Of a stretch of 64,000 bases of DNA, positions 5,141-54,765 are shown piece by piece; positions within the stretch are counted from its first letter, which is position 1, and each line of letters starts with the position of its first letter. The DNA is from an uncultured bacterium. GTDB lineage: Bacteria; Hydrogenedentota; CAZGCA01. Both the position numbers and the translations under genes were made by a program. The notes beneath the pieces were generated by a model. It was not told where the DNA came from and ran no database searches. It was given only the letters and a program-made list of their open reading frames with translations. Location: assembly GCA_964524145.1 (NCBI GenBank), contig CAZGCA010000005.1:31038-95037 (forward strand), read 5' to 3'.

Positions 5141-6418
5141 ATGGAAGAGCTCAAATCGTTGGTCGAGAGGTCTCGTTCCAGCGACGTGGAAGCGTTCGGA
5201 CAGATCGTGCGGCGATTCCAAGACATGGCCTGCGGGTATGCCTTCTCGATCCTCGGCGATTTCCACCTGGCTGAGGACGCGGCGCAGGAAGCCTTTATCG
5301 AGGCGTATCGCCAGTTGCCGAAGCTGCGCGACCCGGATGCGTTTCCCGGCTGGTTCCGCAGGGTAGTGTTCAAACACTGCGACCGTATCAGGAGACGCCG
5401 GCGCGTGGGTACCGTCTCTCTGGAGGCGGCGTCCGACGTCGCAGCGGAAGGCGCGGGACCCGTTGAGGCTGCCGAACAGCGCGAGCTGCGAGACACTGTG
5501 CTCGGAGCGATCCGGGCCTTGCCGGAGCATCAACGAACGGCGACCGCGCTCTTCTACATCAACGGGTACTCGCAGCAGGAGATCGCCGAGTTTCTGGATG
5601 TTCCGGCAACGACGGTAAAGAAACGCCTCTACGATTCACGGCGGAGGCTGAAAGAAAGGATGCTCACGATGGTTGACGAAACGCTGAAAGCCCACGCACC
5701 GACCGACGAGTTTCCCGAGCGGATCCTGCGATTGCTTCGCGCACCCAAACCGCTCGAGATTCAGGGGCACCCCGTGCGTGAGGTATGGGAGGACGTACGT
5801 GCAGCGTTCGAAGGATGGCAGATTGTCGAGGGTACGGAGATAGAGTCGGCATCAGCTTTCCGCCGATATCTGCGCCTCTCTCCAGGCAAAGAAACGAGCT
5901 ACCAACTCATCGAGTTTGGTGACCGAGTCCTTAGGGCAACAACCACGAGTACTATCATCCAGGCGATGAGTTCTCGCACACCCCCGTTCAAGGTACTTTG
6001 CGCGGGACGGGTGTTCCGGGACGACGGGCCCAATCCAAAACACTACCCCATCTTCCATCAAGTCTCTGGAGCGCATGTCGGGCTGGGACTCGACGAGGAG
6101 AAGGAGGTAGAAGAGCTTCGCCTGACTCTCGAGCAACTCGCCGGCAGCGGTCGCGTGGCGGCAACAGAACACGAATATCCCTTCGTAAGAAGTCGAGGAT
6201 GGGAGTTGTACATCGAACAGGGGGACAGACGCCAGAACGTGGCCGGCGCGGGACTGCTCCTGCCAGAGATCGTCCAAGAAGCTGGATTGAGCCCGAAGCG
6301 GGTACAAGCCTTCGCGTTTGGCTTTGGCTTAGAGGCACTAGCGATCTGGCGCATGCAGATCGACGACATCCGCAAGCTCTGGCGGCCACCCTACGTGCCC
6401 AAAGAGTCGGACGCATGA
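5141..6418 (+). CDS. ECF (sigma-70 family) sigma factor fused to a C-terminal PheS-like class II aminoacyl-tRNA synthetase catalytic-core domain
   Basis: Residues ~1-95 match sigma-70 region 2 (ECF pattern FGQIVRRFQDMACGYAFSILGDFHLAEDAAQEAF). Residues ~130-180 match region 4 (QRTATALFYINGYSQQEIAEFLDVPATTVKKRLYDSRRRLKE). Residues ~200-425 align with the PheS core: LRATTTSTII ~ LRTHTSPVQI; PPFKVLCAGRVFRDDGPNPKHYPIFHQVSG ~ PPIRIIAPGRVYRNDxDATHSPMFHQVEG (motif 2); AFAFGFGLEALAIWRMQIDDIRKLW ~ [25 protein letters not shown] (motif 3, but with Arg replaced by Ala). Confidence 0.6.
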   Translation: MEELKSLVERSRSSDVEAFGQIVRRFQDMACGYAFSILGDFHLAEDAAQEAFIEAYRQLPKLRDPDAFPGWFRRVVFKHCDRIRRRRRVGTVSLEAASDVAAEGAGPVEAAEQRELRDTVLGAIRALPEHQRTATALFYINGYSQQEIAEFLDVPATTVKKRLYDSRRRLKERMLTMVDETLKAHAPTDEFPERILRLLRAPKPLEIQGHPVREVWEDVRAAFEGWQIVEGTEIESASAFRRYLRLSPGKETSYQLIEFGDRVLRATTTSTIIQAMSSRTPPFKVLCAGRVFRDDGPNPKHYPIFHQVSGAHVGLGLDEEKEVEELRLTLEQLAGSGRVAATEHEYPFVRSRGWELYIEQGDRRQNVAGAGLLLPEIVQEAGLSPKRVQAFAFGFGLEALAIWRMQIDDIRKLWRPPYVPKESDA

Positions 6419-8102: not shown

Positions 8103-8762
8103 ATGCTACCATTTAGTGCGAAAACTTCGTGCAGCACCCGGCATTTTGGCACTAGTACGGACGACGACCGACAGAGCGTGGAAGCGAAGGCTACGAGCGA
8201 GAAGGGGAGCAAAGCTCCAGACAACAAGACCGGACGACCGAGCGTGCTCAACCGCGAATCGGTAGTGTTCGTGGTGGTGTTTCTGGTGACGGTTGTTGCC
8301 GTATTTGTCCTTTACGAGTACATAAAGGACACCAAGCCGATGGCGCGCTACGTGGAGCTGATCTCGGGGCACGTGGGTACGGTTCTGCGTCTGAGCGGCA
8401 GAGACACGGTTGTCCGCGGCGATCGCGTCACGATCAAGCTGGACAAGAGTGATGCGAGCAAAAGGGCCCGGAGGTGGACGATGCAGGTTATCCCCGACTG
8501 CGGCGCTATTCCGTCGATGGCCATCTTTTGCGCCGCCGTGCTTGCGTTCCCTACCGGGCTGAGACGCAAGCTGCTCGGGGTGCTTATCGGGGTACCGTTG
8601 TTGTATGTCGTCAACGTCGGCCGACTTGTGTGCCTGGGCCTGGTCGGTCTGTATTATCGGAGCGGATTCCATTTTGCCCACGTCTACGTGTGGCAGTCGA
8701 TCTTCATCGTGTTTGTGGTCGTGATATGGATGGTGTGGGTCGATAAGGTAGCGAAAGTGTGA
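8103..8762 (+). CDS. Exosortase/archaeosortase-family protein (compact; true start uncertain, possibly near 8342)
   Basis: ISGHVGTVLRLSGRDTVVRGDRVTI ... VIPDCGAIPSMAIF resembles the exosortase G...Gn.i.l...V.eaCSG active-site Cys region. The downstream VVNVGRLV matches the conserved N-x-x-R motif. It is polytopic and hydrophobic. Confidence 0.5.
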   Translation: MLPFSAKTSCSTRHFGTSTDDDRQSVEAKATSEKGSKAPDNKTGRPSVLNRESVVFVVVFLVTVVAVFVLYEYIKDTKPMARYVELISGHVGTVLRLSGRDTVVRGDRVTIKLDKSDASKRARRWTMQVIPDCGAIPSMAIFCAAVLAFPTGLRRKLLGVLIGVPLLYVVNVGRLVCLGLVGLYYRSGFHFAHVYVWQSIFIVFVVVIWMVWVDKVAKV

Positions 8763-9307
8763 AGGAAGGCGGGCTGTTTCTAGCGAAGTTTCTGGTCTTT
8801 GCAGCGATCAGCCTTGCAGTCTTCAGCTTCGCGCTGAAACCGTACGCCTATGTTCTTATGTACGTGAGCGATGCGGCGGGCCGTGTAGCGATGGGGTACG
8901 ATATTTCTGAGCGACGGGTTGAGGGCAGCGGCGTCGGCACTGAGATAACGTTTGTTTATCGCGATGAGACGCGGCGGTTGCCGGCAGGGATAGTGGCGAT
9001 AAACGTGCCGCCGTTCTTGGCGCTCATACTTGCCGACCGCAAGTTACGGTGGCGCGAGAAACCGTTGACTCTTGGAATCGGGATGCTCGTGCTGTTTGCA
9101 AGCCACGTGCTGCTCGTATTTCTGGCTCTTGTGCTGGCGACGTCATTTCGCATTGTGGGCTCAAGCGGACTGGCCCAGGGAGTGGGTACCGTCACGTTGG
9201 CCCTGCCGTTCGTGTTGTGGATATTGCTAGTGCGTCGGGACATGATTTCGCGTGGATTCACCAAGAACGGAGACAAGACGGAGCGTGCAAATGAAGCTGG
9301 TGCGTAA
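8759..9307 (+). CDS. Polytopic membrane protein, possibly the functional partner or other half of the exosortase-like protein
   Basis: 4-5 predicted TM helices and no recognisable motif. Its start overlaps the upstream stop. Confidence 0.35.
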   Translation: MKEGGLFLAKFLVFAAISLAVFSFALKPYAYVLMYVSDAAGRVAMGYDISERRVEGSGVGTEITFVYRDETRRLPAGIVAINVPPFLALILADRKLRWREKPLTLGIGMLVLFASHVLLVFLALVLATSFRIVGSSGLAQGVGTVTLALPFVLWILLVRRDMISRGFTKNGDKTERANEAGA

Positions 9308-10241
9308 TGTGGTTGTGACGGCTGTTGTGGCTACCTGTCTGTGGCACGTGCCGGCGAACGCGGTCTGGGTGTGGACGCCCGAAACGGGCCGCTGGATAAA
9401 CCCCGCACGGCAGCCGCGGGCGACCCCTGAAGAGCAGCTGAATTACGCGCGCCAGCTCACCCGGAACGGCGACTACGACGAGGCGCTTGAGCAATTCGAG
9501 CGGTTTTTCGAGTTTTACGGCGATACCGATATAGCCGACCGGGCGCAGTTCGAGAAAGCCCAGTGTCTCGAGTCGGCGGGCGAGCATCTTGAAGCGAGTC
9601 GCGAGTACCAGAAAGTCATTGCCAACTGGCCCGATACCAAGCTATTCAGCGAAGTAATCGCCAAGGAGTATGAGATTGGGGACCGGTTCTACGAGCTTGC
9701 CCGGGAGGACAAAGACAAGTTCTTCCTGTTCCGGAACCGCAATCTGAAGCGGGCGGTCGAGGTGTACAACCAGGTGATTGAGAACCAGCGTTACACAGAG
9801 GAAGCGGCCGAAGCGCGGTACAAGATCGGGTTATGCTACTTCTCCCGAGGCCGCTACGATGACGCTCGTTTCGAGTACGACGACCTACTCGAGCAGTATC
9901 CCGCGAGCAAATGGACCCCGTTAGCGCTTTACGGGCTCGCCATGTGCAGGTACCACGGAGTGATGCCCGCAGTCTACGACCAGGAAAGGACCGAGGAAGC
10001 GCTTACGGCGTTTCAGCGGTTTGTTGATGAGTACTCCGACAACCCGCGAGTCCCGGACGCCAAGGTGAAAATACTCGAACTGCAGGAAATCGTAGCGGAG
10101 AAGAAGTTCAGGATCGCCGAACACTACCTCAACCGCGGCCGCGAGAACTCCGCGAAGATGTATTTTCTTGCGGTGCTCGAGGACTATCCGGAGACCAGCT
10201 GGGCGGAGCGTGCCCGGCCGTTTCTCGAGGAGTCGGAATGA
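9291..10241 (+). CDS. TPR-repeat outer-membrane lipoprotein, BamD/YbgF-like
   Basis: Signal peptide MKLVRNVVVTAVVATC followed by several TPR-like repeats (YKIGLCYFSRGRYDDARFEYDDLLEQYP...). It lies immediately upstream of an lptE-like gene and holA. Confidence 0.5.
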   Translation: MKLVRNVVVTAVVATCLWHVPANAVWVWTPETGRWINPARQPRATPEEQLNYARQLTRNGDYDEALEQFERFFEFYGDTDIADRAQFEKAQCLESAGEHLEASREYQKVIANWPDTKLFSEVIAKEYEIGDRFYELAREDKDKFFLFRNRNLKRAVEVYNQVIENQRYTEEAAEARYKIGLCYFSRGRYDDARFEYDDLLEQYPASKWTPLALYGLAMCRYHGVMPAVYDQERTEEALTAFQRFVDEYSDNPRVPDAKVKILELQEIVAEKKFRIAEHYLNRGRENSAKMYFLAVLEDYPETSWAERARPFLEESE

Positions 10242-10795
10242 ACCGAACTCGTCTCGTGTTAGGTCTAGCAGCGTTGCTCTTGGTGGCGGGATGCGCGTAC
10301 ACGACCACGAGCTCGCTCCCGGCCCGTTACCGGACCATACACGTTCCCGCATTCAAGAGTTCGGTCAGGGAGTACGATCTGCAGGCCGGCCTGACCAACG
10401 CTGTGAGACGAACGTTCCTCAATGACGGCAGGTTGCGTGTTGTCAATGAGGACGAAGCCGACCTCATTCTGCGGGGCGAGATAATCCAGTGCGAGATCGA
10501 GCCGATAACGTACGACAGGGATGACGTGCCGGCGCAGTTACGGGTACGGGTGGTTGCCAAAGTTGACCTGTATGACCCCGATACAGACGAAACGCTATGG
10601 TCAGAGAACCGTATGGAAGGGACGAGCAGCTTCATCGTGCGCGGACGGGCACGGGCCGTTCGACCCCGCGGCCAGACGGACCTCTCGGTCTCGAGCATCG
10701 ACTCCTTTCCGTCCGCGAACCAGGGCGAAGGCACGGCGGAGGCTATCGACGACCTTGCATCAACTATCTTCTACCGCACCGTCGAGTACTGGTAG
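10238..10795 (+). CDS. lptE: LPS-assembly lipoprotein LptE-like
   Basis: Lipobox LLVAGC; about 180 aa. The conserved lptE-holA adjacency known from Proteobacteria is present. Confidence 0.5.
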   Translation: MNRTRLVLGLAALLLVAGCAYTTTSSLPARYRTIHVPAFKSSVREYDLQAGLTNAVRRTFLNDGRLRVVNEDEADLILRGEIIQCEIEPITYDRDDVPAQLRVRVVAKVDLYDPDTDETLWSENRMEGTSSFIVRGRARAVRPRGQTDLSVSSIDSFPSANQGEGTAEAIDDLASTIFYRTVEYW

Positions 10796-10831: not shown

Positions 10832-11869
10832 ATGACCCATACCCAGTTCATCCAGTCTATTTCGAAGGGCAAGGTGAAGCCCGTCTATCTACTCTGCGGC
10901 AATGAGCCTTTCCTGGTTGAGCACACGCTTCGACGGGCGCTGAAAGAGCTTATCCCGCCCGGAAGTGGTGACGTTGGCCTGACATCGTTTCACGCCGACG
11001 AGACGGACGACAGAACGATATTCGGCGAATGCCGCACGCTGCCGTTCCTCTCGGACCGGCGTGTGGTGGTCGTGCGAAACGCGCACCTGATTGAACAGTC
11101 CGCCCGCACCGAAGCATTCGAGACGTACCTCGGGTCGGTCAACCCGACGACCGTGCTCCTTCTCGTGTCGTCTGATATCGACAAGCGGAAGAAGTTGTAC
11201 AAAGCTGTCCGGAAGTGCGGAGATGCCGAGGCGGTCGATTGCGCGCCTCCCAAGCGGAACGAGATCCCGCAATGGATAAGGGATGAGGCGAAGGCGCGCG
11301 GGAAACGGATCGCGGCCAATGCCGTGGCGGCGTTGACGAGGAGCGTGGGAAGCGATCTTCAAGTACTGACCAACGAACTGAATAACATCAGCAGCTTCGT
11401 TGGTGAGCGCGAGACGATCGAGCGGGAGGACGTCGAGGCGGTCACCTCGGTTCAGTTTCACGAACGGGTGTTCGCGCTCTCGGATGCGATCGGCGCACGC
11501 AACGCCAAGGGAGCACTTGAAATGCTCGACGGCCTCCTCGATACGGGCGAACGGGTTGCATCGGTGCTCGGCTACATTGACCGCCACTTCAAACATCTCT
11601 ACAGGACAAGACAGCTACTCGATGGCGGCGTTCCCAGGGAGAAGCTTGCCGAGAAGATGGGTGTTCATCCTTTTTTCGCCCAGAACCTGGCCGCACAGGC
11701 AACGTCGCGATCGCTTGATGAGCTGAGCGACGTGTTCGCACCGATCGTCGTGGCCGAGCTGAGCATCAAGACGTCCGCCATGCCGGAAAGGACGGCGCTC
11801 GAGATGTTGGTGCTGCACCTCTGCGGAATAGGATGGACGCCACCTCGGAAGAGCAAGCGGAAGTTATAG
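10832..11869 (+). CDS. holA: DNA polymerase III delta subunit (HolA)
   Basis: KPVYLLCGNEPFLVEHTL N-terminal clamp-loader delta signature, 345 aa, located downstream of the lptE-like gene. Confidence 0.75.
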   Translation: MTHTQFIQSISKGKVKPVYLLCGNEPFLVEHTLRRALKELIPPGSGDVGLTSFHADETDDRTIFGECRTLPFLSDRRVVVVRNAHLIEQSARTEAFETYLGSVNPTTVLLLVSSDIDKRKKLYKAVRKCGDAEAVDCAPPKRNEIPQWIRDEAKARGKRIAANAVAALTRSVGSDLQVLTNELNNISSFVGERETIEREDVEAVTSVQFHERVFALSDAIGARNAKGALEMLDGLLDTGERVASVLGYIDRHFKHLYRTRQLLDGGVPREKLAEKMGVHPFFAQNLAAQATSRSLDELSDVFAPIVVAELSIKTSAMPERTALEMLVLHLCGIGWTPPRKSKRKL

Positions 11870-14185: not shown

Positions 14186-17100
14186 CTAAATAAGCGCCAA
14201 CGCCGCGTTTATTACCAACTGCACATCCAAGGCGTTTACTTGTCCGTCTCCATTCACGTCCGCGTCAAAATTGCCGATGTCTATTCCGAGTGCGGCGTTG
14301 ATCACAAGTTGTACGTCTAATGCATCTATGTGATCGTCACCGTTAATGTTGCAGTTGAAAACCGTTACGGGGTCGCTGGGGCCGGCCGCAGGGGCGAGGT
14401 TACCGGCGGCGTCTGAGGCTGTGTCAGCCCCGAGCGATATACTGAGCGTACCTCCACCGGAGATATTCGAGATAGTGACTGTACGCGTTGTATTGCCGGC
14501 GCCGGACACCGTAACAACACCATTGGCCGTATCGGTTCTGTTCAGGACAACATCGTTCCAAGTCAACACCACGTTATCGGCTTCGCCGTATGTAACCGTA
14601 TATGTAATTTCCCGGGTAGCCGTAAACTCCGCCGAAGGTTCTCCGATCGAAACCGTGGGTGGCACAGTATCGAGTACGATCGTGTCGCTGAAGCTGGTTG
14701 ACGTGTTCCCAAGCGTGTCGCGGAATTGGACATACACCGTTTTCTCGCCGTCACCGGCAGTGAGTGTCCAAGGCGTGGACGCTGAGAAATCCTCCCATTC
14801 GTCCCACGTGGTTCCATCGCTGCTCAACCGCATGTCGGCTACACCTATCCCATTTGTGCCGTCTGAGGCGGTCAGGCCGACTGTAACATCGAGAGTGTTC
14901 GTATAAGTCGCACCACTATTGATAACGATAGTCCCCGTTGGCCCTGTCGTGTCCAGGTTGATGCCATCGGTTACGGTTTGGGAAATGTTGTCAGCGGCAT
15001 CCCGGAACTGGGCGTAGACGATCTTCGGGCCATCACCTGCCGAAAGGGTCCATGTTTTGCCGGTACCGACGGCTTCCCACGAACTCCAGTTTGTGCCGTC
15101 ATTGCTAAACCGCATATCTGACACGCCGGAACCGGAACCGTCGCCCGAGCTCAAGGTCAACGTCACGTCCGACGAGCTGGTCCAGTCCGCCCCGCCGTCA
15201 ATCGTTACCGTGCCGGTAGGCGCGGTGGTATCCAACGAGATCGTGTCTGTCGCGGTGGCCGACACGTTGCCGGCGTTGTCTTTGAACTGTGCGTAAACTG
15301 TCTTCCCTTCATCAAACGCGTAAAGGGTCCACGTTTTGCTGGTTGCGACTGTTTCCCACGAACTCCAATCTGAGCCATTGTTGCTGAACCGCATCTGGGC
15401 TACGCCGGACCCATTGCCATCGCTATACGCCAACGCGAGCGTAACGTTTCTGCTATCGGTCCACGCGGCTCCCCCGTTAATTGTTATGCCACCGGTAGGC
15501 GGCACGGAGTCCACCGTTACTGAAGCGCCCGTCGCCGCATTGGCGTAACCCCCGGCCGTATCCCAGGCTGTTCCTGCCGCAACCTCGATATGCAGACGCC
15601 CTTCACCCCAACAGTTGGTCAGCGTTACCGTGCGCGTCGTGTTGCCGTCACCCGACAACTCGACCGTCGCGCCCGCGGCATTTTCCGGAGCGGAAACCAG
15701 GGTAACATCGGCCGCTTCGAGCAAGATATCCGTCGCCCCCTCGTAAGTAAGGATATATTCCACCGGCCCGGAGGCCGTGGCTGTCGGCACGGGTCCCGTA
15801 ATCGTCAGTACCGGCGGCGTGTTGTCCACCGTGAACGTGCCGCTTGGCCCGATTGCCGGAGCGGTTGTGCTGCCCGCGTATGTCGCCGTGCCCGCAGCAA
15901 TAGTAATGCCGAGCGTCCCGTCTCCCGTTATGTTGCTTATGACGATCTTCTTCGCCAACGGTTCAGCCGTATCCTCGACCGTTACCGTCCCGTTGGCCGT
16001 GCCGGTCTTGTTCAAAGTGACGTTTCCAGCCGCCAGATTGACGCTGGTCGCGCCCGGATAGGTCACAGTGTAGTATACCGGCCCCGATTTCGTAATGGTC
16101 TCCGAAGGCGCGCTCAAGCCCACCATCTCGTCACCCACAACTATCGTATAGTCGCCCTGAGCCGACAGGTTGCCGTGTACGTCCTGCGAGACGATATGGA
16201 AATAGTAGACCCCGTCCGGTTTCCCGAACTCATTCCACGTGTAAAGGTCCGTGCTGTCCGGCGATACCGCCGTCACAGTTGTCGATACGGTCTGATCGAA
16301 AGCAAGATGGAACTTGGGCGTACCCGTGGCGAACGAGTCCGGATCGGTCCAGGCAAACCCTATGTTGCTGGTGTTTGATGTCGGGATAACCTGCACGTGC
16401 GGCGGCCGTGCCTCGCGGATGCGCACCGCAAAATGTGTCGGCGCCGTCAGGTGGCCGCAATCGTCCGTCGCAATCAGGTGCAGGAAATACCGGCCCAGCG
16501 AAAGATTGGTCACCTCGAGCGTCGCCTCCGCCGTGCTCGTGCTGCCCGCCGTCGGCACGCTATAGGGGCTGCGATCCCACACGTAGTAGTAGGGCGCGCC
16601 GGAAGCCGGTGCGGGCGTCCACGCCAACGCCACGTCCCGGGCGGCATACGCCGTGTGCGGGTCCACGTGCGTGCTCGATGTCACCACCGGCCCCGGTGTC
16701 GCGCCGACCGTCACCTTGCGTTCCGCCACAGGAGACAGGTAGCCCCACGTGTCCTCGCTCTGGACCAGAAACCAATGGACGCCGGATTCCACACAACCGA
16801 ACGTTACGCTCGTTTCCGTGGTTGTCGTCGAGGGCGTAGCGCCTTCGCTCGTCCCCCAGGCGTACCAGTACTTCACCACGTCCGGCACACCGCCGTCGGT
16901 CCACTCGAACGTTACCTCGACCCCGGAACCGCGCGTGTTCTCGTCAGGATGTGTCGGAGAAGACACTACCGGCGGTGCGTCGGTGACAATGAACTTATAA
17001 TGCGCCGGCGCGCTCAAAGTCCCCGCCGCGTCCATGGCGACCACGTGGAACCAGTAGGTGCCGGGGGCAAGGCCCGGCGTTATCGTAATGAGTGCAGATT

Positions 17101-19117
17101 CTGAGAACGTGTCTCTCGCGTCCGGAATCGTGTCGGGTACACTATCCTGGACGTAGTAGTAACCGGGGATAGTCACCTCTTGGGGTAACACGAAGCCGGA
17201 TCTCCAGACGTCGTTAGTCGAAGTGGGACCCGAAGAGCCGCATGTCCCTCCGCCTAACACCCATAACATGTTCTGAAACGCCACCGCTCCATGCCCCCAG
17301 CGGTACGACCACGGTGCATAAGCCCTTTCTTGCGTCCATGTTATGCCGTCTGGGCTGCTCCAGATATCTCTCATGGCAACATCGCTACAGTATTGTGGGT
17401 GGCTCCAATCTCCGTGTCCGCCCAGTACCCATAGTTTCTCCTGGAACGCCACCACCCTATGGCTCCCGCGCCCAGACCAGCCTGCGTCAGCCGTTTCTAG
17501 CGTCCATGTCCTGCCGTCCGGGCTGCTCCAGACGTCGTTCTTATAGCTACCTCCCAACACCCACAACTTGTTCTGGAGCACCACCGCCTGATGGCCCGCA
17601 CGCCTCCCGCAGCCTGCATCAGCCGTTTCCAGCGTCCATGTCCTGCCGTCCGGGCTGCTCCAGACCTCCTTCTGGGCTCCGTAGTACTCGGGTCCTCCCG
17701 GATTTCCAGCTCCGCCTAACACCCACATCTTGTTCTGGAACACAACCGCCTGATGGCCAGCGCGCCCCGGCCATTCTGCGTCAGCCGTTTCCAGTGTCCA
17801 TGTCCTGCCGTCCGGGCTACTCCAGACGTCGTTCCGATAGCCACCACCTCCCAGCACCCACACCTTATTGTGGAACACAACCGCCGGAGCCGCCGCCCAT
17901 TCTGCGTCAGCCGTTTCCAGTGTCCATGTCCTGCCGTCCGGGCTACCCCAGACGTCGTTCCGATAGCCATCACCTCCCAGCACCCACAATTTGTTCTGGA
18001 ACACCACTACCTCGTGCGCTCGCCGAGGCGACCAGCCTGCGACCGCCGTTTCCATCGTCCAACTTTTCCCGTTAGCCGCGGTTCCGATCTGTGCCTGAAA
18101 CACCTTGTTTGACGAGGGGGTGTGCGTGTCGGGGTGGGATGGGCTGTAGACATATAACCCATCGAGGTACACATTAACGTGGTGGTTCCTCTGCGACCCG
18201 TCGATGATCTGGCGGTCTGTCCCGATGACGGCGATATGGAAGTACCACGCGCCGGTGTTTGTCGCCGTATACTGGACGGTCTTCGGGTCGGCCGCGTCGC
18301 GGAAAGTTCCGCCGGTATCCACGACGGTATACCCGCTCTGATCCATGACCCATAGATAGCCATAGAGGTCTGCCCCTGCCATATAGTTTGTATAATCCAC
18401 GGTCACATCCGGACTGCAATACCATTTAGTGCTGTCCGGATGACTGGGCGAATACAGCGGCAGACGGTCCTGGAACCAGTCCGGGACGCCATCGCCGTCA
18501 GCGTCTTCAAACCCGTCGGAGACACCGTTGCCGTTCAGGTCCTGGTAGGCGTCGGGGATGCCGTTACCGTCGATGTCCTCGAAGCCGTCTGGTAGACCGT
18601 TGCCGTCGAAATCCTGGGCCGCGTCGGTGGTACCGTCCTGATCGAGATCGAATATATCGTCCGGTGTGCCGTCATCGTCTACGTCCAACCATTCCAGTCT
18701 GGTGTCTATCTCGAACAGGTCTGATTCGGGCACGCTGCTGCCGCCCGCAGCCGGAACGCTTTCCAGAAGCACCGCCGCTTCAGCGATCTGGCGTTCCGGG
18801 TGATCGTTGTAAACATGCCAGACGACCATGTTGTCCTGGCCCGGCTGGACATCATCGCCTATGTCGCCATAGACAGTACTGGCGGTAAGGTCGTACGAGA
18901 GTGCGCCATCGTCGCTGGCCGACAGACTCAGTGTCACCGGCCCTGACGGCGTGACGGACAGATCATAAAAGATGCGTACGAAACTACCGTATTGTTCTGC
19001 TTCAACATAGGTAATCTCGACCGTTTGCGCATGGACGGAACTTGTCCTCCCCAACACGGCAAATACCATAACCGACAGGACTAAACCACGCGCTAAGAAA
19101 CGACATGCCGATTTCAT
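14186..19117 (-). CDS. Giant secreted surface protein (about 1640 aa) with TSP3-like Ca-binding repeats, a Kelch beta-propeller, Ig-like modules and a C-terminal double dockerin
   Basis: Signal peptide MKSACRFLARGLVLSVMVFAVLGRTSSVHA. D-x-D-x-D-G repeats (DVDDDGTPDD...DQDGTTD...DGNGLPDG...). Six or more Kelch-like units (VVFQNKLWVLGG...RNDVWSSPDGRTWT). Three ~85-aa near-identical Ig-like modules. It ends in two dockerin type-I segments (DVNGDGQVNALDVQLVINAALALI). Confidence 0.75.
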   Translation of the reverse strand: MKSACRFLARGLVLSVMVFAVLGRTSSVHAQTVEITYVEAEQYGSFVRIFYDLSVTPSGPVTLSLSASDDGALSYDLTASTVYGDIGDDVQPGQDNMVVWHVYNDHPERQIAEAAVLLESVPAAGGSSVPESDLFEIDTRLEWLDVDDDGTPDDIFDLDQDGTTDAAQDFDGNGLPDGFEDIDGNGIPDAYQDLNGNGVSDGFEDADGDGVPDWFQDRLPLYSPSHPDSTKWYCSPDVTVDYTNYMAGADLYGYLWVMDQSGYTVVDTGGTFRDAADPKTVQYTATNTGAWYFHIAVIGTDRQIIDGSQRNHHVNVYLDGLYVYSPSHPDTHTPSSNKVFQAQIGTAANGKSWTMETAVAGWSPRRAHEVVVFQNKLWVLGGDGYRNDVWGSPDGRTWTLETADAEWAAAPAVVFHNKVWVLGGGGYRNDVWSSPDGRTWTLETADAEWPGRAGHQAVVFQNKMWVLGGAGNPGGPEYYGAQKEVWSSPDGRTWTLETADAGCGRRAGHQAVVLQNKLWVLGGSYKNDVWSSPDGRTWTLETADAGWSGRGSHRVVAFQEKLWVLGGHGDWSHPQYCSDVAMRDIWSSPDGITWTQERAYAPWSYRWGHGAVAFQNMLWVLGGGTCGSSGPTSTNDVWRSGFVLPQEVTIPGYYYVQDSVPDTIPDARDTFSESALITITPGLAPGTYWFHVVAMDAAGTLSAPAHYKFIVTDAPPVVSSPTHPDENTRGSGVEVTFEWTDGGVPDVVKYWYAWGTSEGATPSTTTTETSVTFGCVESGVHWFLVQSEDTWGYLSPVAERKVTVGATPGPVVTSSTHVDPHTAYAARDVALAWTPAPASGAPYYYVWDRSPYSVPTAGSTSTAEATLEVTNLSLGRYFLHLIATDDCGHLTAPTHFAVRIREARPPHVQVIPTSNTSNIGFAWTDPDSFATGTPKFHLAFDQTVSTTVTAVSPDSTDLYTWNEFGKPDGVYYFHIVSQDVHGNLSAQGDYTIVVGDEMVGLSAPSETITKSGPVYYTVTYPGATSVNLAAGNVTLNKTGTANGTVTVEDTAEPLAKKIVISNITGDGTLGITIAAGTATYAGSTTAPAIGPSGTFTVDNTPPVLTITGPVPTATASGPVEYILTYEGATDILLEAADVTLVSAPENAAGATVELSGDGNTTRTVTLTNCWGEGRLHIEVAAGTAWDTAGGYANAATGASVTVDSVPPTGGITINGGAAWTDSRNVTLALAYSDGNGSGVAQMRFSNNGSDWSSWETVATSKTWTLYAFDEGKTVYAQFKDNAGNVSATATDTISLDTTAPTGTVTIDGGADWTSSSDVTLTLSSGDGSGSGVSDMRFSNDGTNWSSWEAVGTGKTWTLSAGDGPKIVYAQFRDAADNISQTVTDGINLDTTGPTGTIVINSGATYTNTLDVTVGLTASDGTNGIGVADMRLSSDGTTWDEWEDFSASTPWTLTAGDGEKTVYVQFRDTLGNTSTSFSDTIVLDTVPPTVSIGEPSAEFTATREITYTVTYGEADNVVLTWNDVVLNRTDTANGVVTVSGAGNTTRTVTISNISGGGTLSISLGADTASDAAGNLAPAAGPSDPVTVFNCNINGDDHIDALDVQLVINAALGIDIGNFDADVNGDGQVNALDVQLVINAALALI
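17250..18070. repeat. Tandem near-identical 126-135-bp coding repeats (Kelch units) inside the giant surface protein gene
   Basis: Repeated DNA blocks such as cagccgtttccagtgtccatgtcctgccgtccgggctactccagacgtcgttccgatagcc recur with a few mismatches. The antisense ORF 17242..18075 also shows a periodic peptide. Confidence 0.8.
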
Positions 19118-19340
19118 AGAATATCCCTCCCGATAACCTGATTGAAGCACCTTCTCATATCCAAGCAATTACATTACTGTACTCGACTATAAACCAAAGC
19201 ACCTCCTACGTCAAGCATCGCGCCGGTAGTCCCGAGACATGGGTGATGTCCAGGTGCCCACAAACTGGCGGCGGGGGGAAGATAGGTGTTATAATTCAAT
19301 AAAGAGACCGAAACGCTTAGAAAACCAGGGGGTGATAACG

Positions 19341-27318: not shown

Positions 27319-30207
27319 TTATGCAACCAGATCCAAATGGCCGTCGTGTGCAATCCGCGTCCGCAGATCCGCCGTTGCGACATCCAACGCGTCGTCGCGC
27401 AGGTCTTGAGCAGACGTGTCTTGGTCTGACGGCATGGTGTTGTTCCTTTCGTTGGCGAGCCAACTATCGAGCTGTTCGCCGCCGCTGGTGTCGACCGTTA
27501 CATGCACGAGCTCGACGCCTTCGTTTTGAAGCGCCTCGTGCAGCGCGGGCAATCCGCTTTCGAGCAAGCTGCGCGTTTCAGCGTAGCGCGCGACGATCTC
27601 GAGCTTGACCGCGTTGCCGTCCTGGGAGACTATCCGCAGGTTGACCTCGCCGAGAGTCGGCGGCTCGAGCCGGAGACGTATCTCCGATACATCCCTCGAC
27701 GTCATGAGCCGTGCGGACCGTACGATCTGGCCCGCGACCTTCTCAGCACGGTCTGCCGCGTAGGACTCCGGCAGAGAGAACTCCTGTTCTGCCTGCTGGA
27801 CGTTCGTCTCCTGTTGAGCGTGGTTCGAGACCGGCGTTGCAGTCTCGGCGAACGTCTCGTGGCGCGTGCCCTGTTCGGCGTTCGCGTCAGTGCCTGACGT
27901 TGCGGGCGCTTGCGCGCGTCCCTCAACACCGGCCGCCGCTGTCGCTTTCGCCACAGCTGTGCTGTCGGTTGCAGGAACGCTCTCTTGCGCCACGGGGCTT
28001 GCAGTCTCGCCCGCCTTCGCCACGTCGGCCAACGGTCCACCTTCCTTCAGGCTTTCACCCTGGCCGGAAGACTTCGTCTCGACGTTCGTGACGAACGCAG
28101 ATGCGTTGGCCCCGGCGTCAGGCGTGTAAGGTTCCACTGCCTCGGGAGCCTGGTTCGTGGTTCCGGTCGGCACAGCGTTAGGCGGCGAACCGCCTTGTTC
28201 CGCCTTGGGGTCGGCACCGGCACCGGCTTCAGCGGTTCCGATTTCGGCCGGAGCGACTTCTTGAGCCTGAACAAACGTGCGTACAGGCGCAGGTTCCGTT
28301 GTGGCGCTCTGCACACGCGGACTCGAAGCTGTGGCCGTGGCCGTCACCGTTTCCGGAACCGGAATCTCCTGCTCGTTGCCAACGAGAGGTCCTTCCTGCT
28401 CAGCCGGTTGAACCACTGAGCCGGGCGGCTGTGCTTCCTGAGCAGTCAGCTCAGGCTCTTGCAGCTTGCCACCCACAGCGTCCGGTTCGGTTTCAGGTGC
28501 CACATATTCGACTTCCGGCGGTACGGTCGATCCGACGATAGGCGCCGGAGACGGTTCTGCCGCACCAGCGGACTCGACGTCCTCTTCGAACTCGTTATCT
28601 CCGAAGAGTTGTTCGACCGAAGGCGCCGCCGGTGGTGTCGGCATCGCGCTCTCTTCCAGAGGCGAATCCGTCCCTTCGTCGACAACGCTAACGTTGGCCG
28701 GCATCTCGTCATCGACCACCGCCGCAACAACCGGTGCCACAGGTTCTTCTGTGGTCGTCAGGCCGGATGCAGCCAACACAATCGGCTCCATGGCCGCTTC
28801 CGGTGTCACCGCCGTTATCGGGCGCTCTGCATCGTCGATACTTGCGATGAGTGGCGCTGACGAAGGCTGATCAACCGGCTTGTCGGCCGGTTCCGGTTCG
28901 TCCAGTCCGGCAACCACGATCGGCTCCGGTCGTCCCACTGTAAGGCTTGGGGACGGGTTTGCGCCTACCGGTGCCGCTTCAGGGCCCTCGACTCCGTTTT
29001 GGGGAGCGGACTCATCCGCGATCTCCGGGGACACTGCAGGAACCGCAACGTCAACTGCATTCTCCGGTTCCTCGGTTCCCGTTACGACTGCCGGGTCGAC
29101 GTCAACAACCGCCGGTGCCGGCACGTTCTGCACCGTTTCCGCGGACGCCCCAGACGTTTCGACATCAGGGGTACGTTCCGCTTCATCGGTGCTCGCCGCA
29201 ACCGCAGGCATGACGTCAACAACGCTTACCGTCGGCGTGCCCTGTTCCAACCCCGTAATCGCTACGGTCTGTTCCGGAACAAGGCCGGTTGCCGGCGGCG
29301 GTTGTTGCTGCACCGCGTCCGCGAGTGCCTCGCGGGTTGGCGCGACGATATCGCCCTGCGGTTCCGCCATCTCGCCGGTCGACTGAGCCACTACCAGCAC
29401 GTCCGCATCTGGCTTCACCGTTGCGGTTTTACCGTCCGGCGCAGCCATCAGCACGGGTGCTGCGGCTGCCGAAGACGGTTCTCCGGCCGGTACTTCCGGG
29501 GCCGTTGCTGCAGGTACCGACGCGACGCCGGCACTCGGTTCAGCCGAGGATGCCACCACAATAGGATCCGGTGGCGGCACAACAGGTACACGTTCCGGAC
29601 CGGCCTGTTCGAAGCTGGCCGTCGCCGTTGTTTCCGGCGTTTCGCCGACCATCGTAACGGGCTGCTCGGCGGATTCGGTCTCAGATGGGACCGCCCCGTC
29701 TCGGGCAGCCACCGGTTGGAGCGGTCGCTCTCCGGACGCTACAGGAGACTGGTCTACCTGGGTGGATGGCACCGTCTGCGCATCCACAACCTCGAACACA
29801 TCCGGCTGGACTACAGCGTTTACAGCCGGTTGTGCTGACGAGACCACTGTCTCGGCTTCGGCATATGCAACGCCGGCTTGGCCTTCGGGCACTGCGGCCG
29901 TAGCGGATTCCGGATCAACCAGAACAGCTCCGGGCGCGTGGCCGGCGGAAACCGAAGCGGCCGTATCGCCTTCGGTTTGTCCGGGCTGTTGATTCGTCGG
30001 CGGGGACGGGTTTGTCGCAACCGTCGCGCCGACAACATCCTGCCCGGTCACGCCATCCAGCGTCCCTGCACCAGTTGCATACTGTGCAAGTATCTCGCTG
30101 AATAACGAGGCTGCGGCGTCTTCCGGCGGGCTCAAGGCAGCAAGGATGCTGCTCGCCGTCGGCAGAGACTCCACGGGCGGAATAATCACTTCACCCATAT
30201 ACATCAC
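27319..30207 (-). CDS. fliK: Flagellar hook-length control protein FliK, unusually long (962 aa) with a Pro/Ala/Glu/Thr-rich spacer
   Basis: C-terminal Flg_hook domain (IRLRLEPPTLGEVNLRIVSQDGNAVKLEIVARYAETRSLLESGLPALHEALQNEGVEL). A ~700-aa low-complexity region precedes it. Confidence 0.8.
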   Translation of the reverse strand: MMYMGEVIIPPVESLPTASSILAALSPPEDAAASLFSEILAQYATGAGTLDGVTGQDVVGATVATNPSPPTNQQPGQTEGDTAASVSAGHAPGAVLVDPESATAAVPEGQAGVAYAEAETVVSSAQPAVNAVVQPDVFEVVDAQTVPSTQVDQSPVASGERPLQPVAARDGAVPSETESAEQPVTMVGETPETTATASFEQAGPERVPVVPPPDPIVVASSAEPSAGVASVPAATAPEVPAGEPSSAAAAPVLMAAPDGKTATVKPDADVLVVAQSTGEMAEPQGDIVAPTREALADAVQQQPPPATGLVPEQTVAITGLEQGTPTVSVVDVMPAVAASTDEAERTPDVETSGASAETVQNVPAPAVVDVDPAVVTGTEEPENAVDVAVPAVSPEIADESAPQNGVEGPEAAPVGANPSPSLTVGRPEPIVVAGLDEPEPADKPVDQPSSAPLIASIDDAERPITAVTPEAAMEPIVLAASGLTTTEEPVAPVVAAVVDDEMPANVSVVDEGTDSPLEESAMPTPPAAPSVEQLFGDNEFEEDVESAGAAEPSPAPIVGSTVPPEVEYVAPETEPDAVGGKLQEPELTAQEAQPPGSVVQPAEQEGPLVGNEQEIPVPETVTATATASSPRVQSATTEPAPVRTFVQAQEVAPAEIGTAEAGAGADPKAEQGGSPPNAVPTGTTNQAPEAVEPYTPDAGANASAFVTNVETKSSGQGESLKEGGPLADVAKAGETASPVAQESVPATDSTAVAKATAAAGVEGRAQAPATSGTDANAEQGTRHETFAETATPVSNHAQQETNVQQAEQEFSLPESYAADRAEKVAGQIVRSARLMTSRDVSEIRLRLEPPTLGEVNLRIVSQDGNAVKLEIVARYAETRSLLESGLPALHEALQNEGVELVHVTVDTSGGEQLDSWLANERNNTMPSDQDTSAQDLRDDALDVATADLRTRIAHDGHLDLVA

Positions 30208-53196: not shown

Positions 53197-54765
53197 TCAC
53201 TCCTGCGAGAACAAACCGCGTTTCGTCGCGCGCCGTATGCCCCACGCGAAGAACAGAAACATGCCCACGATGAGCGCTCGCGCGGCCCACAGGTACGGCT
53301 TGTCGGCGGCATCCTTGCCTTTCATCAGGAAGGTGTCGACGCCGTCGGTCACGATCCACCACGTAAGTATAGTGCCAATGAGCAGGGGAGTGACGTACTT
53401 GAAGACGTAGCGGAACACATTCGGCACTCTCAGCTCGGCTCCGCGGTGAAGTTCGTCCCATCCCTTCTCGATCCCGAACAACCAGCAGAACACGATCACC
53501 TCGATGAACGCGAACAGCGCGAGGCCGATGGTGCCCGCCCAGAAATCCATCTCGTCGAGAAACCCGTGTTTGAGAAACAAGACCGTCGGCATCGCGAATA
53601 CCAGTATGCCGACGCACACAATGCCTGTTGCACGTTGCCGGGGATACTTCAGCTCCTCCTGGAAGAAGACCACCGCCGGCCGAAACAGAGCGACCGACGA
53701 TGTCGCGCCCGCAAGAAACAGCAACAGGAACCACATCGTGCCGAACAGTCTGCCCCCGGCCATCTGCTGGAAGATCACCGGCATCGTCTGGAACGCGAGG
53801 TTAAACGAACCGCCCTCCGCGATGAGTCGCGCCTGTGCCGCCCCGAAAAACACCACCGTCGCGGGTATCGCGATGGTGCCGCCGAGAATAACCTCTGCCA
53901 TCTCGTTTGTGCCTACCGTTGCGAGGCCGCTCAAGGCAATGTCCTCGTCGTGCCTGACATGGCTCGCGAACGACTGGACGATGCCCAGCCCAAGGCTCAG
54001 AGTGAAGAACACCTGGCCAGCCGCAGTAACCCACACAGTGGGATCCGCCAGCTTCCCCCATGCCGGCACCCAGACGAACGCGAGCCCCGCGCTCACGTTA
54101 CGTTCGGGGAACGAAGGGTCCGGCGTCCCGAGTGTCAGCACTCTCACGAGAAGGACAACCGCTAACACAAGAAGCGTCGGCACACCGACCTTCGCGAGCA
54201 GTTCTATGCCGCGAGAGAGGCCGCGGCGCATGATGTACGCATTGAAAAGGAACGTTAAACCAAAGAAGATGAGTGCCGGGGCAAACGAGCTGAAGTACTC
54301 GTTCGTCTCGACGTGCTGGTAGCCGCGCAGGAATGATCCCATCCCCGCACTGGTGGCGGCGCCAAAGTACTTTCCCGTCAACGAATAGAACGCGAACCCG
54401 AGACACCATGACTCGACGTAGATGTAGTACAGGCCAATCATCGTCGGCAGAACTATGCCGAGCACGCCGAGATACTTCGATGCGGGCGCATGCCACAGCC
54501 TGTGGAACATGCCCGGCGTTGTGCCGTGCCCATACCCGCCGCCACGACGGCCAATGCTCCACTCGACCCACATGAGCGGTATGCCCATGAATAATAGGGC
54601 GATGAGGTAAGGTATCATGAATGCGCCGCCACCGTTTTGGGCCGCCTTGGTGGGGAACCGCAGGAAGTTTCCCAACCCAATGGCATTGCCGGCCATCGCG
54701 AGCACGAGCCCAATTCGCGTGGCCCACCGCTCCCGTTCATGATGCTCGTGCATTTGCCTCACCAT
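53197..54765 (-). CDS. Neurotransmitter:sodium symporter (NSS/SNF, LeuT-like) family transporter
   Basis: WATRIGLVLAMAGNAIGLGNFLRFP is the NSS TM1 signature. About 520 aa with 12 TM. Confidence 0.85.
   Translation of the reverse strand: MVRQMHEHHERERWATRIGLVLAMAGNAIGLGNFLRFPTKAAQNGGGAFMIPYLIALLFMGIPLMWVEWSIGRRGGGYGHGTTPGMFHRLWHAPASKYLGVLGIVLPTMIGLYYIYVESWCLGFAFYSLTGKYFGAATSAGMGSFLRGYQHVETNEYFSSFAPALIFFGLTFLFNAYIMRRGLSRGIELLAKVGVPTLLVLAVVLLVRVLTLGTPDPSFPERNVSAGLAFVWVPAWGKLADPTVWVTAAGQVFFTLSLGLGIVQSFASHVRHDEDIALSGLATVGTNEMAEVILGGTIAIPATVVFFGAAQARLIAEGGSFNLAFQTMPVIFQQMAGGRLFGTMWFLLLFLAGATSSVALFRPAVVFFQEELKYPRQRATGIVCVGILVFAMPTVLFLKHGFLDEMDFWAGTIGLALFAFIEVIVFCWLFGIEKGWDELHRGAELRVPNVFRYVFKYVTPLLIGTILTWWIVTDGVDTFLMKGKDAADKPYLWAARALIVGMFLFFAWGIRRATKRGLFSQE

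Follow-up and report, generated by a model that had tools for sequence, protein, structure and literature searches.

The window analysed here is a stretch of 64,000 nucleotides (nt) from an uncultured bacterium of the Hydrogenedentota (assembly GCA_964524145.1, contig CAZGCA010000005.1, positions 31,038 to 95,037 of the forward strand), and its coordinates are used throughout. It carries two overlapping open reading frames (ORFs) on the forward strand, ORF1 (8103..8762, 219 amino acids (aa)) and ORF2 (8759..9307, 182 aa), which encode an exosortase and its membrane partner and are the subject of this study. Exosortases are widespread in environmental bacteria and their mechanism is almost unstudied; short exosortases accompanied by a small partner gene, such as XrtF, XrtH and XrtX, are catalogued only as hidden Markov model (HMM) families. 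To our knowledge, no exosortase structure has been solved. An earlier reading of the window made from its letters alone (the sequence-only reading) had placed both ORFs at these coordinates, where we also find them, and had described ORF1 as a compact exosortase-like enzyme and ORF2 as a polytopic membrane protein, and both descriptions hold.

ORF1 scores 55.7 bits against the exo_archaeo signature TIGR04178 (cutoff 23, E = 4.5e-15), which bears out its assignment to the exosortase family. At the subfamily level, the highest-scoring models all describe short exosortases; they are 156-174 positions long and align nearly end to end with ORF1 residues 51-218. These are XrtX (NF046081, 72.8 bits against a cutoff of 170, model positions 2-164 of 168), archaeosortase B (ArtB; TIGR04144, 72.6 against 150), XrtH (TIGR04177, 71.0 against 86) and XrtF (TIGR04128, 68.3 against 90, model positions 8-173 of 174). 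Since the short-exosortase models are covered from end to end, ORF1 is not truncated; it is a complete short-form exosortase with its core at residues 51-218. The Pfam EpsH family (PF09721) comes slightly under its gathering score (24.2 against 25.7) and aligns only at positions 104-251 of 254; ORF1 gives no full-length XrtA/EpsH match at gathering score that would include the N-terminal transmembrane (TM) block.

The catalytic residues expected of the family are all in place. Alignments of 16 and 30 sequences of the ORF1 family share invariant columns at Cys133 (PDCGAIPSM), AFP148-150, Asn171 and Arg174 (VVNVGRLV) and His193 (FAHVYVWQ), and the active-site motifs picked out in the sequence-only reading coincide with these columns. 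The presumed nucleophile Cys133 is encoded by TGC at 8499..8501 (+) and the presumed triad His193 by CAC at 8679..8681 (+), both codons having been verified; the Asn171-x-x-Arg174 motif (NVGR), with Arg174 as the presumed triad arginine, lies at 8613..8624 (+), with codons AAC and CGA for the two invariant residues. In the AlphaFold2 (AF2) model of ORF1 (pLDDT 83.3, pTM 0.73), residues 1-50 fall below about 55 and form a low-complexity N-terminal extension that is predicted to be disordered, and the position of the start codon is provisional. The cysteine is preceded by a hydrophobic helix (51-74, mean Kyte-Doolittle hydropathy 2.0), an amphipathic helix (78-97, 0.37) and a three-stranded sheet, in agreement with the earlier count of about one TM segment before the Cys region. 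The model puts Cys133, Arg174 and His193 close to helix termini, in helices 131-148, 153-184 and 186-217. Foldseek comparison with the PDB gave nothing meaningful for the model of ORF1 or of ORF2 (best E 0.06 and 0.56, TM-score at most 0.25), and when the exosortase alignment was used as a profile against PDB sequences, nothing was found.

We collected 71 ORF1 homologues, most of which are 310-320 aa long and belong to Candidatus Hydrogenedentota; most relatives come from metagenome-assembled genomes of this phylum, and the nearest in the genome collection is 43% identical. What makes the long forms longer is a stretch of about 130 aa inserted after the first TM/helix and ahead of the Cys motif; it is rich in charged residues and alanine and is helical by composition. 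Other short forms like ORF1 are P0002, P0003, P0037, L005, L088 and L091, and ORF1 differs from its sisters by 11 extra residues inserted in the sheet loop. Since the sisters L005 (97.9 bits) and L088 (92.1) and the exosortase of the fused locus L034 (87.3) pass the curated XrtH cutoff of 86, with L091 under it (85.1), ORF1 itself can be classified as a divergent member of the XrtH clade. At one locus (L001, 1455-3219), two exosortase genes stand in tandem, P0037 and one that passes XrtH (106.6 against 86), followed by a single partner gene.

ORF2 is harder to place by search. The curated Pfam and NCBIfam models gave no match, and a search with ORF2 as a single sequence returned only near-identical copies; the family surfaced once the proteins encoded by neighbouring genes had been collected. 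Directly 3' of the genes for ORF1 homologues lie proteins of about 190 aa with 26-27% identity to ORF2, which share with it the motifs FLxKF, Y29, N82-x-x-PF-x-ALxLA, G108 and LPFxLW. Two of these proteins pass NF041730, the model of the XrtH-associated membrane protein (XrtH_assoc), with 44.9 and 44.8 bits against a cutoff of 35; the partners of the short-form sisters gave no match to that model. A 15-sequence partner profile built without ORF2, of which 12 members match NF041730, recovers ORF2 over 162 columns (hhalign 99.5%, E = 1.6e-22), and ORF2 finds the partner at L005 directly by BLASTP (E = 1.5e-20). The residues invariant in the family are present in ORF2 (F7, F11, Y29, N82, L89, L91, A92, G108, F151, L153 and W154). 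On these comparisons, ORF2 truly belongs to the family of XrtH-associated membrane proteins (NF041730 / PF28117), although it has diverged very far. Its AF2 model (pLDDT 87.4, pTM 0.79) has four hydrophobic helices, at the lower end of the four to five given in the sequence-only reading, and ORF2 lacks the Cys/Arg/His triad.

The partner profile was also run exhaustively with HMMER against 1.84 billion cluster representatives and returned 335 family members at E<=1e-3. Weak matches of 146-196 aa from this search were considered as possible exosortases and rejected, being short partner-like proteins with no NCBIfam match. Six proteins (P0209, P0212, P0222, P0225, P0232 and P0235) are partner-like at 146-162 aa and lack the sheet region; they keep N-x-x-PF-x-AL-x-LATP…RR and LPFxLW and likewise have no NCBIfam match.

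The two genes are joined by a GTGA overlap at 8759..8762 (+), in which the GTG start of ORF2 (8759-8761) runs into the TGA stop of ORF1 (8760-8762). This four-nucleotide overlap, read directly from the sequence (…AAA GTG TGA…), has AAGG about 12 nt upstream and has the form of a translational-coupling junction. The same -4 overlap occurs at L003, L004, L020, L026, L027, L033 and L041 and is the commonest arrangement in distant relatives. We collected 84 exosortase loci, of which 77 are informative and seven end at a contig edge within 750 nt of the exosortase. The partner gene lies directly downstream on the same strand in 60 of the 84, and a lineage-specific profile recovered it downstream in 12 more, all acidobacterial (E 1e-96 to 1e-106). 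In five others, a single ORF encodes both in frame, the exosortase preceding the partner across a linker of about 15 aa, and both domains are well matched (independent E-values of about 1e-35 for one and 1e-51 to 1e-62 for the other). Every one of the 77 informative loci thus has the partner, next to the exosortase in 72 and fused in frame behind it in 5, for which reason ORF1 and ORF2 are read as an obligate two-subunit unit.

Fusion is not confined to these loci. At least 13 fusions of about 420-620 aa, all with the partner domain at the C-terminus, occur among the top 150 representatives of the exhaustive search. Taking genomes and metagenome clusters together, natural fusions with the exosortase first and a linker of about 15 aa are seen in several Hydrogenedentota, at L018 (9446-11149), L034 (9362-10864), L045 (120-1253) and L048 (9485-10993), and in P0095, P0106 and P0155. 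Since in-frame fusion has recurred, it argues for a physical association of the two proteins. At L047 (9392-12382), the fusion ORF runs on in frame into a GlcNAc 2-epimerase domain (PF07221, 173 bits) to give a 996-aa product, which is either a triple fusion or the result of a lost stop codon.

The existence of such fusions in at least five Hydrogenedentota genomes, with the overlap of the window ORFs in different frames, could also suggest that the window holds one gene broken by a frameshift, whether through sequencing error or through recent pseudogenisation of a fused exosortase-partner gene. The sequence-only reading had named a sequencing frameshift in one canonical gene as the finding that would undo its interpretation. 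However, an independent metagenome contig (L086, from the same organism in JGI sample Ga0114922) carries the same two ORFs, 99-100% identical over MATE-ORF1-ORF2-bamD-lptE, and since the arrangement is the same there, an artefact is excluded. The two proteins are also called separately in other datasets (P0001 with 11 member sequences and P0072 with 6), and the -4 overlap recurs in distant relatives as described above. ORF1 ends where its unfused homologues end (…W(V/I)E…V…), none of which carries an ORF2-like extension, and the fusion linker of about 15 residues is absent here. A broken gene is therefore extremely improbable.

We asked what the partner is in relation to the enzyme. A profile-profile alignment of 16 partner against 16 exosortase sequences gave a hhalign probability of 71.7% (E = 3.5e-5, score 37.7), with reversed profiles at no more than 22.0 and column shuffles at no more than 21.5. 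With 124 partner and 71 exosortase sequences, this rose to 93.6% (E = 2.1e-7, score 50.1), over 115 collinear columns that place ORF2 residues 2-124 on ORF1 residues 51-179. The partner motif ALvLAT(P)…RRl…G aligns to AAVLAFP…krl…G of the exosortases. Controls for the deep comparison scored 12.5 and 12.7 (reversed profiles), at most 16.5 (five unrelated polytopic proteins of the window) and at most 37.4 (shuffles of 25-column blocks). Since block shuffles keep the local motif, part of the deep score comes from one motif block and the rest from collinearity. The AF2 models of ORF1 and ORF2 have an identical order of elements (H-H-E-E-E-h-H-H-H), with a TM helix and another helix ahead of the three strands, and a short helix and three long ones behind them. 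The Cys and Arg columns of the exosortases are unconserved in the partner. By eye, the partner motif LPFxLW resembles HxYVWQ of the exosortases with Pro for His, a weak likeness, as the last helix is left unaligned by hhalign. Taken with the predicted folds, the alignments indicate that ORF2 is probably a non-catalytic paralogue of the exosortase core, an ancient duplicate that has lost the triad.

This relationship bears on a different account, in which the pair is a canonical eight-TM exosortase like XrtA that has been split, with ORF1 as its catalytic C-terminal half and ORF2 as its permuted N-terminal TM block. It would fit the restriction of the EpsH match of ORF1 to positions 104-251 of 254, and a polytopic ORF2 that always occurs with ORF1. 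However, ORF1 covers the known short-exosortase models over their full length; six partner-family proteins, ORF2 among them, gave no PF09721 match even at E<=10; and because the counterpart of ORF2 in the alignment is the core of ORF1 (residues 51-179), with the same order of secondary structure, ORF2 does not correspond to the N-terminal block of XrtA. The homologues that end like ORF1 point the same way, none of them being the ORF1+ORF2 fusion that a split gene predicts. We consider a split enzyme very unlikely. Of the earlier suggestion of a split or permuted exosortase system, the single system survives, given the 77 of 77 loci, and the split or permuted canonical XrtA does not, given the full coverage of the short models.

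Another account would make ORF2 an independent membrane protein, for instance a transporter or an acceptor-lipid enzyme, that shares an operon with ORF1 without forming a complex and resembles its core through convergent composition. It could draw on the exhaustive HMMER search, in which the partner profile retrieved no true exosortases, and on block shuffles that reach 37.4 and so reveal a strong contribution from a single motif. Against it stand the repeated in-frame fusions, a deep hhalign score above all controls and collinear over 115 columns, the identical order of secondary structure, and the partner family's lack of any conserved polar catalytic set beyond Asn82. On balance, an independent role for ORF2 seems to us unlikely.

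The pair does not stand alone in the window. Immediately downstream, on the same strand, lies a gene for a BamD-like outer-membrane lipoprotein with tetratricopeptide repeats (9291..10241), which matches TIGR03302 (OM_YfiO, 126.8 bits against a cutoff of 81.4) and PF13525 (YfiO). The longest ORF of this gene begins at 9252, and translation probably begins at the ATG at 9291, which has GGAG upstream, so that the 5' end of the gene overlaps the 3' end of ORF2 by 17 nt; the same 17-nt overlap is found at L005. An LptE-like gene (10238..10795 (+); PF04390, 46.7 bits against a cutoff of 23) overlaps the BamD stop by 4 nt. These two overlaps suggest a tightly coupled four-gene run. The co-directional series closes with holA, encoding the DNA polymerase III delta subunit (10832..11869 (+); PF06144, PF21694), after which come rpsT on the opposite strand and then murJ. 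Upstream of ORF1 lies a MATE transporter gene that ends in a weak terminator-like hairpin, and apart from this site, a scan for promoters and terminators was uninformative.

The trio of exosortase, partner and bamD is kept in every other short-form locus with enough flanking sequence (L005/L087, L088/L090 and L091; exosortase identity 39-48%). As in the window, the gene order at L091 runs on through bamD-lptE-holA, and the BamD orthologue there scores 90.1 against the TIGR03302 cutoff of 81.4; L005 and P0002 share a GT4 glycosyltransferase gene upstream instead. When linkage to bamD, lptE, holA, MATE and murJ was sought in 80 genome-collection loci, bamD was found only at L005 and was absent from the long-form Hydrogenedentota and acidobacterial loci. 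As far as gene order can tell, the bamD linkage is specific to the short-form lineage. Since the pair shares a putative operon with bamD and lptE, it may have a constitutive role in the biogenesis of the outer envelope, such as the maturation of surface or outer-membrane proteins.

The substrates of such an enzyme would be expected to carry a C-terminal signal composed of a motif, a TM helix and a basic tail. The sequence-only reading had seen no PEP-CTERM-like tail in the window, and this is borne out: among the ORFs of the 64 kb, only ordinary multi-pass membrane proteins end in this way. One protein with a C-terminal TM segment and a basic stretch (53197-54765 (-)) was rejected as a substrate, being an SNF-family transporter, as were neighbours of P0022 with faint DUF3466 matches, which lack a C-terminal TM tail. 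Farther afield, the long-form Hydrogenedentota loci L002, L010, L012 and L046 encode, on the strand of the exosortase and 0.14-9 kb upstream of it, eight secreted proteins that end in a common tail of the form GTDP(N/L)(N/D)P…(D)FPxLP…(W), a hydrophobic helix and RRRR. They lie at L002 1-2746, L010 10-2836 and 7189-8721, L012 4066-7173 and L046 5604-7172, and some carry domains like those of pyrroloquinoline quinone (PQQ) dehydrogenases or choice-of-anchor domains. The tail matched none of the curated CTERM models, including IPTL-CTERM (TIGR04174). These observations suggest that GTDP..FPxLP-TM-RRR is a candidate new sorting signal of the clade, a lead that concerns the long-form relatives and is not evidence on the window. 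Known proteins with IPTL-CTERM, the class of signal linked by name to XrtH, include the S-layer protein of Methylomirabilis lanthanidiphila (PMC8671808), so the substrate of the window's enzyme could be a major surface component.

Whether the pair acts in C-terminal sorting at all deserves consideration. It might instead serve as an intramembrane protease or acyltransferase on a lipid-linked or otherwise tail-less substrate during outer-membrane biogenesis. A role of this kind would account for the absence of tripartite tails both in the 64 kb and near the short-form relatives, and for a pair whose tight linkage is with bamD and lptE, not with candidate substrates; XrtF systems are also said to lack PEP-CTERM-like substrates (PMC10936215). 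Nevertheless, the full triad is kept, as it is in enzymes with demonstrated processing of C-terminal signals, long-form relatives have candidate tail proteins clustered directly upstream, and 64 kb covers only a small part of a genome. We regard a role outside sorting as rather unlikely.

The preferred reading takes ORF1 and ORF2 together as a two-subunit exosortase system of the XrtH type, and we consider it likely to be correct. Several results weigh against it. ORF1 lies under the curated cutoff of every named subfamily (71 against 86 for XrtH), and ORF2 reaches only 6.9 bits against NF041730 (E = 4.6, cutoff 35). The paralogy argument stands on one profile-profile alignment over about two thirds of the proteins, with block shuffles reaching 37.4, and the partner profile retrieved no true exosortase in the exhaustive search. 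No tripartite signal protein was found in the window, as described, or within 10 kb of any short-form relative, and a regular-expression search for an IPTL-like or IPTLxxWG-CTERM tail in the window and the related loci gave no match. A literature search turned up no experimental study of any XrtH-clade member. A fuller scenario, in which the partner is a dead exosortase duplicate, the two proteins form obligate pseudo-symmetric heterodimers of an active and a scaffold protomer that have repeatedly been fused in Hydrogenedentota, and the pair in the window's lineage does housekeeping work from an xrt-partner-bamD-lptE operon on substrates without catalogued C-terminal signals, is conceivable as a whole, but we consider it less likely than not.

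How a two-subunit XrtH-type system would work can be proposed by analogy with better known enzymes. In archaeosortase A (ArtA), Cys173, Arg214 and Arg253 are essential (PMC9263693), and the members of the family have been proposed to be Cys/Arg/His proteases and possibly transpeptidases (bioRxiv 10.1101/2023.06.07.544157). ORF1 is predicted to consist of four TM helices, an outer-face helix and a small sheet, with the triad at the periplasmic ends of its last three helices. On the model of archaeosortase A and XrtA, it would recognise Sec-exported proteins that end in a motif, a TM helix and a basic tail, cleave them at the motif on the outer face of the inner membrane through an acyl intermediate on Cys133, and then release the protein or transfer it to an acceptor in the envelope. 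ORF2, which would be made in step with ORF1 through the GTGA overlap, most likely pairs with it in a 1:1 complex, of which it probably shapes the side that binds the substrate or the acceptor. Both proteins are predicted to have their N- and C-termini inside (N-in/C-in), which is compatible with the order of domains in the natural fusions. In the lineage of the window, the pair heads a co-directional run of xrt, partner, bamD, lptE and holA.

The closest catalogued counterpart is XrtH with its associated membrane protein, already described as TIGR04177 and as NF041730 and PF28117. In both systems the exosortase is short, with a core of about 160-190 aa that has the Cys/Arg/His motifs, and the next gene on that strand encodes a four-TM protein of about 180-200 aa, its start codon often overlapping the exosortase stop; sisters of the window's exosortase pass the XrtH model, and relatives of ORF2 pass XrtH_assoc. 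The window pair differs in its scores (71 against 86 for ORF1 and 6.9 against 35 for ORF2), in the 11-residue insert of ORF1, in the lack of any IPTLxxWG-CTERM substrate found here and in its position upstream of bamD-lptE-holA. The XrtF system of Flavobacterium johnsoniae (Fjoh_1448-1449) likewise couples a short exosortase to an adjacent small membrane partner, and no PEP-CTERM-like substrates are recognised for it, whereas ORF1 falls short of its model (68.3 against 90), the window's partner family matches NF041730 only, and the phylum is different. It provides the only experimental evidence for such a pair, both genes being needed for the same phenotypes: deletion of xrtF or of the adjacent gene for the exosortase F system-associated protein has identical effects, with loss of biofilm, of zorb formation and of sand colonisation (PMC10936215).

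XrtA/EpsH, which acts on PEP-CTERM proteins, shares the catalytic core, the triad and the presumed chemistry, the cleavage of a C-terminal tripartite signal. However, XrtA has an extra N-terminal TM block and needs no paralogue-like partner, and the window is without an exopolysaccharide locus, PEP-CTERM proteins or PrsT. The long-form Hydrogenedentota exosortases of 310-370 aa and the fusions of about 420-620 aa are the closest relatives of the ORF1 core, with 50-60% identity over the C-terminal half, and have the partner family downstream or fused. They differ from the window pair in the insert of about 130 aa, in the GTDP..FPxLP-TM-RRR proteins that some of them have upstream and in the absence of bamD linkage.

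Beyond what is catalogued, our analysis adds the universal pairing in informative loci, fusions that recur, a partner that is probably a paralogue of the enzyme, the linkage of the short-form lineage to bamD and lptE, and a candidate tail in relatives. The universal pairing and the natural fusions argue that the partner is a true subunit, and the evidence from sequence and predicted fold for a copy without the triad leads to a testable heterodimer model. The bamD/lptE linkage in one lineage would connect exosortases functionally with core envelope assembly, and not with exopolysaccharide loci. In a current annotation both genes would be under-called, ORF1 appearing as no more than a 'family protein' and ORF2 as a hypothetical one.

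Other genes of the window have features of their own. The giant surface protein that the sequence-only reading had described as ending in dockerins is a 1660-aa protein (14186-19168 (-)), and it does have a type I dockerin at its C-terminus; it also contains a Kelch beta-propeller and a sub-threshold Big_3_3 Ig-like match (20.1 against 27). An unusual combination of domains occurs in a 425-aa protein (5141-6418 (+)), in which an extracytoplasmic function (ECF) sigma-70 factor (regions 2 and 4, residues 5-175) is fused to a PheS-like class II aminoacyl-tRNA synthetase core (PF01409, residues 206-416, 103 bits; the PheS-related mystery ligase SrmL is sub-threshold, 68.5 against 300). Finally, a 962-aa protein (27319-30207 (-)) has a C-terminal FliK hook-length-control domain, an indication that the organism has flagellar genes.

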